A DNA stretch of 30,618 bases from a virus (IMGVR_UViG_2563366903_000024), one strand, 5' to 3'; positions 2,487 to 20,370 are shown, counted from the stretch's first letter. Notes: generated by a model not told the origin, from the letters alone. Made by a program: numbers and translations.

Positions 2487-3318
2487 CCAGTCTCCCCGAA
2501 TTACTCATTTCATGCAGCGATGACACGATGTCACTGACAGGCGTAACAACGCCCCGACGCTGGCTGGTCAGAATATCGGTTTCCGCTCTGAGTTTATCTC
2601 TGGCAGCGTTGATTCTTTCCCGGTCAGCACGAAGTTTTGGTGCTGTTTCCGCCAGAACGTCCAGCGTCAACAATGAGCGTTCAATTGACTCGATACGGGC
2701 AATATTCCGGTCAAGGGCCTGTTCTGCTTTGAGTATTTTGTCGTACAGGGCAACACGGGTTTCCACGTCAGCCGCCTCTTTCAGGTCGGCGAACATTTTT
2801 TTCAGTGTTCCTGTTACTGAAAGTGCGCGGGCACGGGTGAACACCAGTTCATCGAACAGCACCATATCGGACGCATCATCCATGAGGTTATCTGCCTCAA
2901 GATACTTCGCATATCCACGGTGTCTCACGGCGTGGGTGTTACGGTCGCTAAACCGGGCAACGGGGTGAGGATTGCCCGATCTGCTGTTGCGTTTCGTTTC
3001 TGCCGAATTTGCGCAGTTTTTTGCGCATTTTTCATCACTGCCATCATCGCCGTAAGACTCGTCATTACTGGACTCGTCATCAGCTCCATGCGCATTTTTT
3101 TGTGCGCTTTTTTGAGTGTCAATTTGCGCACTTTTTTGCGCATTTTTCTGCGCACTTTCCTCTGTATTTTTGGGGGAGTTTTTGCGCAGTTTTATGTACC
3201 GACGAGCCGTGCCATAGCAGATATTGTTCTGTCGACACCAGTCCTGAAGTTTTATGCCAGTTCTGGCATGTTCGCGTCGGAATGCCTGCTCCAGTTTTTT
3301 CCAGTCCAGCTTTGCCAT
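2467..3318 (-). CDS. terS: Terminase small subunit (N-terminal HTH, low-complexity QKNAQKSAQ middle)
   Basis: 283-aa ORF immediately upstream of and overlapping terL. N-terminal HTH-like segment (NICYGTARRYIKL). Assignment by position and architecture. Confidence 0.6.
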   Translation of the reverse strand: MAKLDWKKLEQAFRREHARTGIKLQDWCRQNNICYGTARRYIKLRKNSPKNTEESAQKNAQKSAQIDTQKSAQKNAHGADDESSNDESYGDDGSDEKCAKNCANSAETKRNSRSGNPHPVARFSDRNTHAVRHRGYAKYLEADNLMDDASDMVLFDELVFTRARALSVTGTLKKMFADLKEAADVETRVALYDKILKAEQALDRNIARIESIERSLLTLDVLAETAPKLRADRERINAARDKLRAETDILTSQRRGVVTPVSDIVSSLHEMSNSGRLDDIPEE

Positions 3319-8250: not shown

Positions 8251-8618
8251 AGTATTACCTGGTTTCAGTTAACTGCATAGTGCCGGGTGCCTCCCGGTGA
8301 GTTCAGCCCGGTGCCACCGAACCCGCGTCTTTCACATTGCCTGTGACATTAAAAATGCCAGCCCGCACCAGCCGCCCCGCCGCTGAGGGGGATTCACCAT
8401 GCGTTGCGATTTTTAACAAATTCACCGCCAGCCAGACAATCATCAACTTGCTGAATTGTGAGGTATTTAAAAATTTCCCCGATTAACTGATACCCTGCTA
8501 ACCACCTGTTGTTTTCTTTTTCAGCAACAAAAAAGCCCGCTCATCGGCGGATTCGGCTGCGTGGCAATGTAACCATTCTTATCATGATATGAGGATTTTT
8601 ACGATTGTAAAATGTTTT

Positions 8619-9713
8619 TTAACTGACACCAGAATCATCATAACCGCGACTTGTTATAGCTTGCCTGTATGCGTTCATTTTGCGTTCTGCGTACTGGACA
8701 ACATCTTTAATGACAAGCTTATGAACAACTGAAATAAGGTCATTTATATAACAAAAGTCAGGTGACTTATTTTTCACTGGCAACCAAATAACATCGTTCT
8801 TAATTTTTCTATTACTAACACTATCCCCCCATGAATATTTATGTGAAATAGACCTATAAATACATGAAATAATGCCCAAATAAGCAAACTTTGTCCTTCC
8901 ATCCTCATTGTTAACATAGAGTCGCAAATTATGACTGTCGTTTGAAAAAAAGTCTCGCTCCTGATAAGTTACAACGAATGTCTTACCACCAATAAAAATA
9001 CAGTTCCCTTTTTCCAAGAGTGAGTCATCATAGGCGATATAAGAACTAACAGAGTTATTATCACGGCTAGCACAAAGATAAGGAACATCCCCACTATTTT
9101 CTATGATGTCTCTAGACAATATGTTTCCTGTATTGCACACTGAGAATAACTCAGTAACAGGAAAGCCTGAAAATTCAATATTTTTAAAATGTTCCAGGAT
9201 AAGATAATCTTTTTCCGTTAGTTGGTAATCACTCAGCCCAGCAGCTATCAGGTATGCTTCCAGCTCTTCTATATGGGCCGCTTCCAGCTCTTCTATATAA
9301 TTATCCATAAAAAACCAGTCAATTTCATTATTTTTCACTGGTAATGAGATGAAATATTCTCCATCTCTGAGTTTGGAACTCGATAACTGTTGACCATAAT
9401 TAAAACGCCCCTTTAAAGCTTTATTAATCATACTGGCAACATACAGTCCGCGCTTTGCATTAAAGTCGGACTTACTTGATTTTAATGTAAGAACATGCAC
9501 CTTCATTTCTACGCTGGCACAATAAGGATGATAAAAAGCATCTCCAAAAAAATTAACGCTTATAAAATTTTCATAATGCCTTGCATCATCCATAAACTCG
9601 GTATCAAACTCTCCGATGATACCGTTTTGATCGCTCTTTGCTGAAACACGTTTGATTTTGCCTGGTTTTAATCTTCCTGAGGAGATAAGCGAGCCTGTGC
9701 TCACATAGAACAA
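8619..9713 (-). CDS. HsdS-like specificity subunit (two target-recognition domains around a helical spacer)
   Basis: 364-aa protein with two-fold internal architecture: each variable half ends in a similar segment (ISLPVKNNEIDWFFMDNYIEELE and IWLPVKNKSPDFCYINDLISVVHKL) followed by a predicted helix. Apparent TTG start with AGGA upstream, 60 nt after the methyltransferase stop. Confidence 0.5.
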   Translation of the reverse strand: MFYVSTGSLISSGRLKPGKIKRVSAKSDQNGIIGEFDTEFMDDARHYENFISVNFFGDAFYHPYCASVEMKVHVLTLKSSKSDFNAKRGLYVASMINKALKGRFNYGQQLSSSKLRDGEYFISLPVKNNEIDWFFMDNYIEELEAAHIEELEAYLIAAGLSDYQLTEKDYLILEHFKNIEFSGFPVTELFSVCNTGNILSRDIIENSGDVPYLCASRDNNSVSSYIAYDDSLLEKGNCIFIGGKTFVVTYQERDFFSNDSHNLRLYVNNEDGRTKFAYLGIISCIYRSISHKYSWGDSVSNRKIKNDVIWLPVKNKSPDFCYINDLISVVHKLVIKDVVQYAERKMNAYRQAITSRGYDDSGVS

Positions 9714-9772
9714 ATCGCCAATCCTGAACTCTCCCCACTCAACGCTTCTTAATTTATCGCTGAGCGGGGAAT

Positions 9773-11734
9773 TTACTTTCCCGCAAAATTGTTTTCACCT
9801 TGTTTTTTCAGTAATTGCGAGACCTCCCATGCAAGGTAATCACCTACCGTCTTTTTGAAATCCTCCAGCGTTGGCCTAGCATCTACTGGCCTGGTCTGAT
9901 TCCAGTCCTCACCACTATCAGGATCGATTGTTCCCTCAAAATATTCATCCTCCGTAAAGATATTAAGGCAACCTTTCCCGAAGTGAACCAGATCCACAAC
10001 CTCCTGATAACGCTCTTTTGCACGATCGGCATCAACAAGATTGTTTCTTGCCTTTTTGCGATTAGAGCGAGCGTAGCCGTCATTGGAAAAGTCGATAAAC
10101 TTAACAGCCTGTTTCGCGTTATGCGGAATTTTTACCTGAAAAACGTAAATGTACGTCTGAACGCTTGATTTACCAATAAACAGATCCGCAGGCATTTTGA
10201 TGCTTGCCAGCAAGGTATTTTCCTTGAGTATTTTTTTGTTGTACTCCGTAGCCTTTCCTGTGCCAGCTGAACTCTGGATAATCACTGCAGCATAGCCTTT
10301 ATCCATCATCGACAGCGCCTTCTGCACGAAAATCATGCCGTTACCTTTAGCTGAATACGGAGGATTGAGAATAAATGCGTCCGCAGGGAATTTTTCTCCT
10401 GTTTTCCCAAATCCATACTTGCCGTCAAAATCGGCCAGCGAGTCTTTATTGAGGATATTCGAGCTACCATCCCCCATCAAAATCATATTCAGGATGGCCA
10501 GCATATAAATACTGGATAACACCTCAAGGCCAAGAAGCTGTTCAGCCTTGATTTGCGCTTCCTTAAGTTGTAGTTCGTTCGGTGAGTGAATATTTTCTCT
10601 GGCGTCAATGAGCATTTCATTCATTGCAGCCACAAGCAATCCCGCAGAACCTGTAGCAAAATCCCACACATAGGAATCTTTGTTTACTCTGGCGAGTCGT
10701 GCCAGCAATGTGGCAACATAAGGTGGTGTCAGAACGACGTCATTGAGCTTGTCCTGCGTAAATCCAAGCCAGCGATACATCTCATTAAACAGTTTGCCCG
10801 TAAAATCGGTGGTCAGTCCAATTTTGTAATACTCCCCAAGATCATCAACAACTTTAACAAACACGCGCTTTAACTGGCTTTCACCGTTGACTGGTTTGTT
10901 AATGTTTTCAGTCCACAGCGTATTTTGCAACGAGCGCAAAATCATTTCTCTTTTTGTTTCAGGAACAGCTTTCAGCCTTAAAAAATTCCTTATTTTCCTG
11001 AAAATAATATCACCATCACGCAAGTCCTCCTCCGTTGAAGAGGTCAGTTCTTTTTTATCCAGCGGTGCTAACTTTCCCGGAATCCCCAACGTTGCAATAA
11101 CGGTAGCCACAACAAGGTAAACACGATCGCTTTCACCAAGCCCCTTTTCATTCTGGTAAATATCGTTATTCAGACGGGAAAGTCGCGTGTCTATCTCTTC
11201 CTCTTTGCTGGCCTTGATTTTTTCCAGTTCTTCGGGAGGAAGATTAAGCAGCTTTATCTTGTTGAGAAATCCATCAACATTTTTGTCAGCAAGGAACGAT
11301 AAGTCGGTGAATTCACCAACCTTCTGTCCGGCTCCTAAATTATTCTTTGATACGTACCACACGCCGATTTCATGATGCAGTTCGCCTGTACCATCATCGC
11401 GCCAGCCGGTCATACCAATAGCAATAATATCAGGGTAATTGGTGAACTGAAGAAGTGCGTTGGCATAATGGACTGCGCCATTCACCGCGTATCCATTAAT
11501 ATTTTTAAAATTCCATTCTTTTCTGGCATCTTTGTTCTCAATAATACCGTTGCTGCCAAGTCTGATAAGCCTGTCCTTGTAGCCTTTATACTCGATGAGA
11601 ACGGGATACTGCTTGCCGTATTTGTCCTTAACAAGGAGTTTTACGTCGGGACGATTACCGCCTGCGCCGCCATTTTTCGAAAAATAAGCGTCCAGTGCGT
11701 TATCGATCTCTCCGTTAAGTGATGCATTCTGCAA
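9773..11734 (-). CDS. N6-adenine DNA methyltransferase with N-terminal PD-(D/E)xK-like region (BcgI-A-like); body ORF currently out of frame with its ATG
   Basis: 653-codon ORF with AdoMet motif (VWDFATGSAGLL) and catalytic NPPY motif (ILNPPYSAKG). N-terminal third has a possible nuclease motif (RPD…x16…EYK). No ATG near its 5' end; the frame is open upstream through the 7-nt repeat tract. Confidence 0.7.
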   Translation of the reverse strand: MQNASLNGEIDNALDAYFSKNGGAGGNRPDVKLLVKDKYGKQYPVLIEYKGYKDRLIRLGSNGIIENKDARKEWNFKNINGYAVNGAVHYANALLQFTNYPDIIAIGMTGWRDDGTGELHHEIGVWYVSKNNLGAGQKVGEFTDLSFLADKNVDGFLNKIKLLNLPPEELEKIKASKEEEIDTRLSRLNNDIYQNEKGLGESDRVYLVVATVIATLGIPGKLAPLDKKELTSSTEEDLRDGDIIFRKIRNFLRLKAVPETKREMILRSLQNTLWTENINKPVNGESQLKRVFVKVVDDLGEYYKIGLTTDFTGKLFNEMYRWLGFTQDKLNDVVLTPPYVATLLARLARVNKDSYVWDFATGSAGLLVAAMNEMLIDARENIHSPNELQLKEAQIKAEQLLGLEVLSSIYMLAILNMILMGDGSSNILNKDSLADFDGKYGFGKTGEKFPADAFILNPPYSAKGNGMIFVQKALSMMDKGYAAVIIQSSAGTGKATEYNKKILKENTLLASIKMPADLFIGKSSVQTYIYVFQVKIPHNAKQAVKFIDFSNDGYARSNRKKARNNLVDADRAKERYQEVVDLVHFGKGCLNIFTEDEYFEGTIDPDSGEDWNQTRPVDARPTLEDFKKTVGDYLAWEVSQLLKKQGENNFAGK

Positions 11735-11802
11735 CTTGTAATCAAGCCTGTAAGATTTAAGCCATGAGTTCGCCAGTTCGGTAATTTCCGGCTCAACAGA
11801 TT

Positions 11803-11931
11803 TTACAGACTTTCTTGATTTACTGCTGGTCGCTGGTCGCTGGTCGCTGGTCGCTGGTCGCTGGTCGCTGGTCGCTGGTCGCTGGTCGCTGGTCGCTGGT
11901 CGCTGGTCGCTGGTCGCTGGTCTGGCAGCAT
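11803..11931 (-). other. Leader ORF from the RM gene's true ATG through the heptanucleotide tract to a premature stop (OFF-phase product)
   Basis: SD AAGGA lies 7 nt upstream of ATG 11931-11929. Translation reads MLPDQ(RPATSDQ)n through the repeats and stops at TAA 11805-11803, in the 0 frame versus +1 for the methyltransferase body. Confidence 0.6.
11825..11922 (-). repeat. Perfect tandem heptanucleotide repeat, 14 copies (GCTGGTC on plus, GACCAGC on coding strand)
   Basis: Counted directly: 98 bp of uninterrupted 7-nt periodicity between the ATG at 11931 and the methyltransferase ORF body. Confidence 0.95.
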
Positions 11932-12105
11932 AAAATCATCCTTTTATGAAAATCAACGTTTTTTGAGCACTCGCACACAAAAAATTACCGCATTGGTTGC
12001 AACGACAACCTGCATTTTGCGGAGCATATGACAAATAAAGTACGGGTGCGTTGAGGATGCCAGACACATCAGAGGTGGCGGGAGATTACTCCCCTGCCTG
12101 GTCTC

Positions 12106-12261
12106 TTACTTCTCAGATTCGTAGTCTACGAAGACAGCGACCTCCGTCTGGCCGGTTCGGATTCGTACCTCGCAGAAGTCTTTCCTCGTTACCAGTGCTA
12201 TCACTACGACGGTAATACAGATGACGATCAGGGCGATTAACATCGCCTTTTGCTGCTTCAT
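12106..12261 (-). CDS. hok: Hok/Gef-family type I toxin (small membrane peptide)
   Basis: Unlisted 51-aa ORF MKQQKAMLIALIVICITVVVIALVTRKDFCEVRIRTGQTEVAVFVDYESEK, very like E. coli Gef/HokC. SD AAGGAG before the ATG. Confidence 0.8.
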   Translation of the reverse strand: MKQQKAMLIALIVICITVVVIALVTRKDFCEVRIRTGQTEVAVFVDYESEK

Positions 12262-12431: not shown

Positions 12432-12464
12432 CAGCTATTCTACAGTAAAAACTCGCGCTTTCAA
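12432..12464 (-). promoter_or_regulatory. Sigma70-like promoter immediately downstream of Q (candidate late promoter pR' or hok promoter)
   Basis: Minus strand TTGAAA (12464-12459), 16-nt spacer, TAGAAT (12442-12437). The -35 overlaps the Q stop codon. A 10-bp inverted repeat (12383-12392 / 12409-12418) follows. Confidence 0.4.
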
Positions 12465-20117: not shown

Positions 20118-20370
20118 AGTCCCCTCGCATACAAGATTTACTCCATACCGCAGACGGTCCCGGTATCTCCCGGGTTAACCCAATCGGCTTCAGGCTGCTG
20201 CGGTTGGTGTGACTGCACATTGGTGTGACTGCACATCTTCACAGACGGTCCCGGTATCTCCGGGTTAACCCAATCGGCTTCAGGCTGCTGCGGTTGGTGT
20301 TGTTGCTGGCGAAATTCTTCCAGATGTGGCAGAATTATTCCCGTGTATTGCTCCATGCCCTGCCTGAATA

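Follow-up and report, generated by a model that had tools for sequence, protein, structure and literature searches.

The viral sequence IMGVR_UViG_2563366903_000024, a stretch of 30,618 nt that is referred to below as the window, carries on its minus strand a module (8619-11931) that probably encodes a repeat-switched Type IIB restriction-modification enzyme. Its larger gene encodes the RM subunit, which combines cleavage and methylation; the smaller reading frame encodes the specificity subunit, S, which would be made by a −1 ribosomal frameshift at the end of RM. This is the explanation that best accounts for the observations as a whole, and the locus is quite likely a prophage-borne accessory ('moron') cassette for a BcgI-like Type IIB enzyme with two layers of translational control. 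On balance, we also favor a broader proposal that rests on sequence comparison: in a widespread mobile Type IIB family, found in at least 564 species representatives, S would be made only as a −1 extension of RM, with recoding fixing the ratio of RM to the fusion product RM~S, and in Enterobacteriaceae prophages a tract of up to 120 repeat copies would toggle all activities. We found no description in the open-access literature of a repeat-controlled Type IIB locus in E. coli prophages, nor of a programmed frameshift joining restriction-modification subunits. The BcgI-like family is already known, whereas these two features are apparently undescribed.

The initial annotation placed two open reading frames (ORFs) here, and ORF translation confirmed both on the minus strand, at 9773..11734 (653 aa, TTG start) and 8619..9713 (364 aa). 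RM ends in ...GCG GGA AAG TAA, in which the heptamer G_GGA_AAG abuts the stop codon (9775-9773). It is followed by a hairpin whose 5′ arm, loop, and 3′ arm occupy 9770-9758, 9757-9745, and 9744-9732, respectively; the hairpin has a minimum free energy of −23.3 kcal/mol (z = −5.9), and none of 200 shuffled sequences folded as well. The heptamer, its spacing, and the hairpin match the layout of known −1 frameshift sites. The S frame is open from 9794 and runs for 387 codons counted from the heptamer. S homologues start with M-L-E-x-VEWGEF-x-GDLF, and the window has the equivalent motif RSVEWGEFRIGDLF; no ATG, GTG, or TTG precedes the conserved N-terminal motif VEWGEFRIGD in the window, the first start-type codons being TTG 9713 at the end of that motif and GTG 9704 just past it. 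The smaller protein had been called a 364-aa product of a second gene. Its HsdS-like identity with two target recognition domains (TRDs) stands, whereas its standing as a gene of its own does not, since it lacks a start codon, and the frameshift-type signal in front of it had been missed. Transcriptional rather than ribosomal slippage was considered and is disfavored, as the A-run is only 3-4 nt long in most loci. Runs of this length are too short for transcriptional slippage.

A scan of the GTDB species representatives yielded at least 564 relatives of RM. The best 80 of these, at 70-73% identity, were combined with E. coli variants and with loci from Neisseria, Nitratifractor, and Lachnospiraceae to give 82 junctions, and codon, linker, and hairpin counts were made on 72 distinct aligned junctions, whose hairpin alignment is gap-free. 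These 80 belong to Bacteroidota, Clostridia, Gamma- and Betaproteobacteria, Campylobacterota, Spirochaetes, Lentisphaerae, and the candidate phyla Gracilibacteria and Saccharibacteria. An in-frame X_XXY_YYZ heptamer is found in 81 of the 82 junctions (GGGAAAA in 45, GGGAAAG in 32, AAAAAAG in two, and AAAAAAA in two), directly abutting the stop codon in 75 junctions and lying one codon earlier in five. The glycine codon of the heptamer is GGA in all 71 cases, and the codon before it, which may encode L, S, E, P, A, or Q, nevertheless ends in G in 71 of 72; the sole exception, CTA, occurs with an A_AAA_AAA heptamer, and the wobble base equals X in 72 of 72. In the −1 frame, no stop occurs over ~365-400 codons, the whole of S, while the +1 frame runs into one within 6-16 codons. 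In the stretch from the heptamer to the S motif, the −1 frame has a stop in none of the 72 linkers, versus 40 for the 0 frame and 64 for the +1 frame, and one unpaired loop codon encodes leucine in every linker, with all six leucine codons in use. The stop-free linker and its invariant leucine indicate that the −1 frame is already translated before any start codon is reached.

The hairpin is similarly constrained. Columns 14-24 pair with columns 40-50 in 97.9% of cells, versus 35-50% in slid controls (n = 72), and four to five of the pairs show compensatory (double) changes; pair 21-43, for instance, occurs as UA in 29 sequences, CG in 22, UG in 17, and GC in one. Neither the paired percentage nor the covariation score was matched in any of 500 shuffles, and an independent RNAalifold prediction gave this helix as well (−19.1 kcal/mol). 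Another variant from E. coli prophages, ~85% identical (loci L009-L012, L026, and L035), ends in ...GAA AAA AAG CAG/TTG TAA; it thus carries A_AAA_AAG, followed at the same spacing by a different, G+C-rich hairpin, and its −1 frame is open into S. A 46%-identical relative has A_AAA_AAA and a hairpin, and both elements are absent from a 44%-identical relative in which S lies in the +1 frame and starts at an ATG of its own. The cassette with heptamer and hairpin was also seen in loci L054 and L111 (Gracilibacteria) and L101 (Saccharibacteria). That the family remains ~70% identical across phyla implies extensive horizontal transfer under an unusually strong sequence constraint.

Natural in-frame RM~S fusions exist as well. 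They include a 983-aa protein (P0129) that is 71% identical, has two TRDs, and contains the same linker, an 895-aa protein of Algoriphagus (L083), and an 862-aa protein of a Bacteroidetes locus (L081) with the linker ...IPLKEKIKNVEWGEY. Many relatives at 34-49% identity measure ~840-960 aa with one TRD or 1046-1186 aa with two.

If no frameshift took place, S would be a separate protein, its translation starting either through reinitiation after termination at the RM stop codon or from a codon that is weak or non-canonical; S initiation would be gated by the hairpin, and the enzyme would be an ordinary two-subunit BcgI-like complex. BcgI and BsaXI are indeed described with separate subunits, and hsdM and hsdS of EcoKI are translationally coupled through a 1-nt overlap (PMC3510504). 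An in-frame ATG precedes the S motif in 17 of 81 loci, six of them with a GGGAAAATGA stop/start overlap of the kind typical of coupling, so a conventional S start is possible in certain hosts, and a wider role of termination-reinitiation is conceivable. The V-E/K-W-G codons place a constraint of their own on the 3′ arm of the hairpin, and this protein constraint, together with the relatedness of the sequences by descent, inflates the apparent conservation of the hairpin. All of these points count against a frameshift. We nevertheless consider a separately initiated S unlikely. In 48 of the 81 loci there is no ATG, GTG, or TTG before the V[EK]WG motif, and the codon at the RM stop is AUA or GUA in most loci. 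Coupling would moreover leave unexplained the nucleotide constraint on the heptamer (with GGA always used and the wobble base equal to X across six amino acids), the replacement by A_AAA_AAG in the variant, and the selection on the amino acids of the linker upstream of any start. Heptamer, spacing, and hairpin are arranged as in known −1 frameshift sites.

In the proposed frameshift mechanism, for which the comparative data argue, a fraction of ribosomes would slip by −1 at G_GGA_AAG and enter the S frame, and one mRNA would give rise to free RM and to an RM~S fusion whose length would be ~1068 aa, not counting the leader encoded by the repeats. The two products together would directly provide an (RM)2S composition. 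BcgI-like enzymes have a ratio of 2RM:1S, and the 1RM:2TRD ratio of the single-chain enzymes AloI and CjeI has been called a mystery (PMC3874165); BsaXI was found to be (RM)2S by cryo-EM (PMC11997821). The published stoichiometry of BcgI and BsaXI (PMC3874165, PMC11997821) is thus the composition proposed for the module. The predicted frameshift product has the same architecture as AloI, CjeI, PpiI, and TstI; these are permanent fusions, whereas the module would produce free and fused forms from one mRNA by recoding, which would avoid the 1RM:2TRD puzzle of AloI and CjeI (PMC3874165). A further parallel is the engineered EcoKI HsdM-HsdS fusion ('Type IMS'), which works in vivo and requires added free HsdM in vitro (PMC3510504), a combination of fusion and extra free M that resembles the proposed RM plus RM~S. 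In EcoKI, the C-terminus of HsdM adjoins the start of a TRD (PMC3510504).

The junction resembles lambda gpG/gpGT and dnaX in having a heptamer with a downstream structure and, as proposed, two products with a common N-terminus; it differs from them in gene class and in that its heptamer abuts the 0-frame stop codon. Lambda itself reportedly uses G_GGA_AAG, an observation attributed to Levin et al. in 1993. The heptamer is listed for E. coli as one highly prone to shifting, and the frameshift in lambda G/GT has the role of fixing a molar ratio (PMC5009743). Neither the 2016 recoding review nor the GeneTack survey contains a restriction-modification example. Should the frameshift be real, restriction-modification enzymes would become one of the few classes of bacterial genes with −1 recoding, and it would be clear why automatic annotation leaves the S gene split, truncated, or flagged as a pseudogene in the RM-S family. 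It would also offer a simple answer both to the subunit stoichiometry and to the origin of single-chain from two-subunit Type IIB enzymes, with the RM-S family as a living intermediate between the two-subunit (BcgI) and single-chain (AloI/CjeI) forms.

The second layer of control would lie at the start of RM. The leader reads AAAAGG-ATG-ATTTT-ATG-CTG-CCA and runs straight into a perfect tandem tract of a 7-nt unit. Of the two ATG codons, which are 8 nt apart and in different frames, only the downstream one (ATG-2) has a normally spaced Shine-Dalgarno-like AAGGA; the purine run borders directly on the upstream one (ATG-1), which is mutated to ATA in locus L009. The unit, whose length is not divisible by three, begins 9 nt after ATG-2, and the tract is open in all three frames, each encoding (DQRPATS)n. 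Repeat-free homologues have N-termini (M-x-K..S-I/V-EPNIADLANGWLKSYKLDYKLEQ) with which the 30 codons lying from the tract to TTG 11734 can be aligned. This alignment reveals the 653-aa length given in the initial annotation as a truncation produced by mechanical ORF calling; from the sequence, the RM gene is read as starting at ATG 11931 and continuing through the tract. With the 14 copies of the window, the ORF from ATG-2 stops after 42 codons and that from ATG-1 after 39. The enzyme frame is left without a start codon, and the window allele is OFF.

Outside the window, 17 near-identical loci from E. coli and phage carry 16-120 copies. Across the 18 loci, window included, the copy numbers are 14, 16, 31, 54, 56, 58, 64, 65, 76, 79, 83 (in four loci, among them that of phage PhiR12_3), 89, 91, 93, 99, and 120, and the tracts are perfect in all but two loci, each with a single interruption. 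The flanks of the tract locus are 99.4-100% identical in nine genomes and one phage, and seven genomes and one phage match at 100.0%; in three O111:H8 strains, sampled in related studies, the counts are 56, 83, and 58. Four of the 18 loci are in frame with ATG-2, seven with ATG-1, and seven with neither, and the in-frame alleles predict proteins of 726-966 aa. Strains G8 (99 copies), DETEC-S792 (54), and 48 (120) have alleles in frame, and G6/7 (83 copies) is OFF. Such hypervariable copy numbers among near-identical loci, with a changing reading frame, identify a classic contingency locus. Slipped-strand gain or loss of 7-nt units would move the enzyme in and out of an ATG frame, as the comparison of strains suggests. 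A phase-variable allele had been implied by the initial annotation, although the tract itself was not described there. Because the two ATGs are in different frames, two of the three repeat phases give a full-length ORF, and the layout gives a hint of three expression levels (high, low, and off) in place of a simple switch between on and off. Since S depends on translation of RM, one and the same tract would turn cleavage, methylation, and specificity on and off jointly. In its ON state, the enzyme would presumably, by analogy with its family, methylate a bipartite site in the lysogen and cut unmodified incoming DNA, and the tract could make members of a clone differ in methylation and in their uptake of phages and plasmids.

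The leader and tract are kept in divergent E. coli and IMG/VR loci at ~85% identity, and 18 of 24 exact IMG/VR matches to five tandem units have the leader-tract-RM arrangement. None of the 80 homologues of other taxa has the tract, which is restricted to E. coli and Salmonella-like prophage versions. A protein database search with (DQRPATS)9 for other genes with this leader returned short fragments only. Most genomes annotated at NCBI have RM starting after the tract, with S often split or flagged as a pseudogene, artifacts that follow from the tract and from the absence of an S start codon. A spurious 'YXWGXW repeat-containing protein' or 'hypothetical protein' is annotated opposite the tract (RefSeq loci L002-L012 and L122-L126).

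A skeptical reading of the same data would be that the window copy is a dead, frameshifted gene and that tract differences reflect assembly noise, with no switch at all. The 14-copy allele is out of frame with both ATGs, and short-read assemblies collapse or break the tract and systematically miscount it. This possibility is nonetheless very remote: complete genomes show the 16-120 copies seen in the 17 near-identical loci, in all but three of which (those with a shortened S frame) both RM and S are intact; leader and tract survive in the ~85%-identical variants; and all three frame states are well represented.

The only other repeat-controlled methyltransferase locus in E. coli that we met is the Type III mod gene of E. 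coli strains that produce Shiga toxin (STEC), M.Eco131I, which has a phase-variable CAGCGAC[n] tract, the same repeat unit as the module, and is collapsed by short-read assembly (Atack et al., PMC5909438). The two loci share the 7-nt unit, the species, the position at the 5′ end of an N6-adenine methyltransferase gene, and a strain-variable length. They differ in enzyme class, M.Eco131I being a Type III Mod, and in leader, and the reference-strain ORF of M.Eco131I has 26 copies, versus up to 120 here. Identity of the module with the published STEC gene was ruled out: the primers given for that gene do not occur in the window, and the two enzymes belong to different classes. Two published surveys of phase-variable Type I and Type III systems (one of them PMC5909438) do not list the module locus.

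The RM protein is read, from its motifs, as one in which a helical connector joins an N-terminal PD-(D/E)xK-type nuclease region to a gamma-class N6-adenine methyltransferase. It matches Pfam N6_Mtase (4e-21) and, among REBASE-derived PADLOC profiles, REase_MTase_IIG (6e-228) and a 637-position profile (2.6e-44). The methyltransferase motifs quoted in the initial annotation are present, VWDFATGSAGLL at residues 356-367 of the 653-aa ORF and NPPY, and motif I precedes motif IV, as in the gamma class. The possible N-terminal PD-x(n)-ExK motif noted there is also present and proved invariant across homologues, and residues 5-57 give a weak match to Pfam VRR_NUC (0.0033, below the cut-off). Homologous RM proteins have 676-686 aa. 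No gene for an HsdR/Res translocase adjoins the RM-S pair in E. coli prophages, Neisseria, Nitratifractor, or Lachnospiraceae, and the NCBIfam hsdM score is 36 bits versus a cut-off of 243; together with the extra nuclease-like domain, this rules out a remnant of a Type I system. The assignment to BcgI-like Type IIB systems, comprising an RM and a two-TRD S, rather than to three-gene Type I systems, is therefore supported at the level of sequence, as had been proposed, by the PADLOC and Pfam matches, the invariant PD..ExK, and the missing HsdR.

S matches Pfam Methylase_S in two stretches (1e-19) and PADLOC Specificity_II, a 341-position Type II specificity profile (9e-21); the hidden Markov model searches suggested earlier thus returned the expected families for both subunits. 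An alignment of S homologues displays the layout TRD1-CR1-TRD2-CR2, where CR denotes a conserved region. BcgI and BsaXI resemble the module in that an RM with an N-terminal nuclease and a gamma-class N6-adenine methyltransferase stands beside a two-TRD S, without a translocase. The module sizes of ~683 and 375-385 aa are near those of the matching PADLOC profiles (637 and 341 positions). In contrast to BcgI and BsaXI, the S of the module lacks a start codon and is tied to RM by a −1 frameshift-type cassette; a frameshift signal, a tract, and a prophage location are unreported for those enzymes (PMC3874165, PMC11997821), from which the module is set apart by description. Its similarity to the solved BsaXI is too low for HMMER. 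NgoAVIII of Neisseria gonorrhoeae is an RM + S pair of the BcgI-like kind (PMC3874165, PMC6789123). Neisseria species have 72%-identical RM homologues with the same heptamer and hairpin, and NgoAVIII itself was compared by description only.

Several observations weigh against a working, switchable restriction enzyme as we describe it. Many short-read IMG/VR contigs stop within the tract, so the 14 copies of the window may reflect assembly collapse and its OFF state is uncertain. The (DQRPATS)n leader would add up to ~280 residues to RM, which bears on its activity. A consensus scan found no sigma-70-like promoter just upstream of the start codons of the module, which bears on expression in the lysogen. 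A PDB sequence search with the RM protein and a 7-sequence profile gave no match at E <= 1, and an AlphaFold2 model built on a 25-sequence alignment was poor (mean predicted local distance difference test score, pLDDT, 55.6), because the homologues are too alike to help.

A further possibility is that the module is a phase-variable methyltransferase only, either a 'phasevarion' regulator or an orphan Type I-like M+S pair, whose N-terminal domain has no restriction activity. NCBI labels RM 'HsdM family methyltransferase', one deposited phage record having 'BcgI alpha chain-like' instead, and Type I HsdM subunits are the top Foldseek matches of the weak AlphaFold2 model, ahead of BrxX and BsaXI, with TM-scores of only ~0.2 that lend weak support to any of them; the same low-confidence model aligns with the BsaXI RM over 614 columns (E 8e-5). 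Phase-variable methyltransferases act as regulators in other species, and no methylated motif was found for the BcgI-like NgoAVIII in 25 gonococcal strains (PMC6789123). Despite this, a methyltransferase without cleavage seems improbable: at ~680 aa, RM is longer than the 424-529-residue HsdM chains among the structural matches, its additional N-terminal domain keeps PD..ExK invariant over a vast phylogenetic range, the REBASE-derived profiles group it with fused RM enzymes, and the window copy has no visible inactivating changes. The coordinates on which the preferred reading, a switched Type IIB enzyme with a frameshifted S, is based are collected in Table 1.

Table 1. Features of the module and its surroundings in the window
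Feature	Coordinates	Strand	Basis
Promoter-like site TTGAAA-16-TAGAAT, just 3′ of the Q gene	12437..12464	-	consensus scan, 10/12 matches
Translation start region: AAAAGG, ATG-1 (11939-11937), ATG-2 (11931-11929)	11929..11945	-	sequence, frame analysis of 18 loci
Perfect (GACCAGC)x14 tract, inside the coding sequence after ATG-CTG-CCA	11825..11922	-	Tandem Repeats Finder (TRF), 14.0 copies, 100% matches, score 196
RM coding sequence 3′ of the tract, 683 codons + stop	9773..11824	-	PADLOC, Pfam, homologue alignment
Putative nuclease motif P29-D30...E48-x-K50 (653-aa numbering; RPD...LIEYK)	11585..11650	-	invariant in two alignments
Methyltransferase motif I DFATGSAG, S-adenosylmethionine (SAM)-binding	10640..10663	-	translation; invariant in homologue alignment
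Methyltransferase motif IV NPPY, residues 457-460, catalytic	10355..10366	-	translation; invariant in homologue alignment
Slippery heptamer G_GGA_AAG, last two RM sense codons	9776..9782	-	junction sequence, comparison
S reading frame, −1 frame of RM	8619..9782	-	alignment, Pfam, PADLOC
RNA hairpin, 13 bp, 5 nt past the heptamer	9732..9770	-	folding, covariation
Terminator-like hairpin + T-run, ~70 nt past the S stop codon	8536..8551	-	consensus scan

The module has a G+C content of 0.36-0.43, versus ~0.5 in its flanks. A Q-family antiterminator and a hok/gef gene lie upstream and a SASA/nanS-p-type esterase lies downstream, which agrees with the placement between Q and a nanS-p-like esterase given at the outset. 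The window is 100.0% identical, over the aligned pieces, to Escherichia phage PhiR12_3 (from ECOR13) and to several E. coli chromosomes, and the matching records have the order NinG, NinH, Q, hok/gef, module, SASA/nanS-p-type esterase, holin, lysozyme, Rz, and terminase. At least 80% of the module is present in only 22 of 5426 complete E. coli genomes. The module occurs in lambdoid prophages, and its carriers include an Stx2b phage, O111:H8 STEC, the enteropathogenic E. coli (EPEC) strain E110019, and several human fecal commensal isolates from Germany and Chile. In strain 04-00955, which has an Stx2b prophage, the module is flanked by Q/hok on one side and by the tRNA-stx2b cluster on the other; it therefore sits upstream of the stx slot and coexists with stx2b without replacing it, and the earlier description of the position as 'stx-equivalent' was imprecise. 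No tRNA genes were found in the window. The promoter-like site downstream of Q likely marks a late (pR'-type) promoter upstream of the module, and terminator-like hairpins come after S.

Further variation was seen in S. Its residues 140-155 (9249-9296, minus strand), in the central helical region, contain two copies of an 8-aa unit (IEELEAAH/IEELEAYL), of which the variant loci L009 and L010 have three. By analogy with the repeats of Type I S subunits, the copy number of this unit could alter the spacer length of the recognition site. Several genomes have RM and the first half of S as in the window and then diverge (window ~8400-9248), owing to replacement or truncation of TRD2; the −1 frame is open for only 133-227 codons in loci L011, L012, and L026. 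This pattern indicates that prophages are exchanging or losing specificity half-sites. The window's TRD2 is closely similar to that of the Lachnospiraceae locus L040.

In Lachnospiraceae loci L040 and L041 (5772-6008), a small HTH_3 gene, resembling the controllers found in some restriction-modification systems, overlaps the start of RM, and behind S lies a RhuM-family gene; the prophage form in E. coli carries the tract instead. The Hok/Gef-family toxin ORF between the Q antiterminator and the module encodes 51 aa (12106-12261, minus strand) and is annotated as frameshifted in some related prophages. Other tandem repeats in the window are 12- and 24-nt units of the TTTGCGCA type at 3008-3158 and two copies of a 16-nt unit at 20204-20236.

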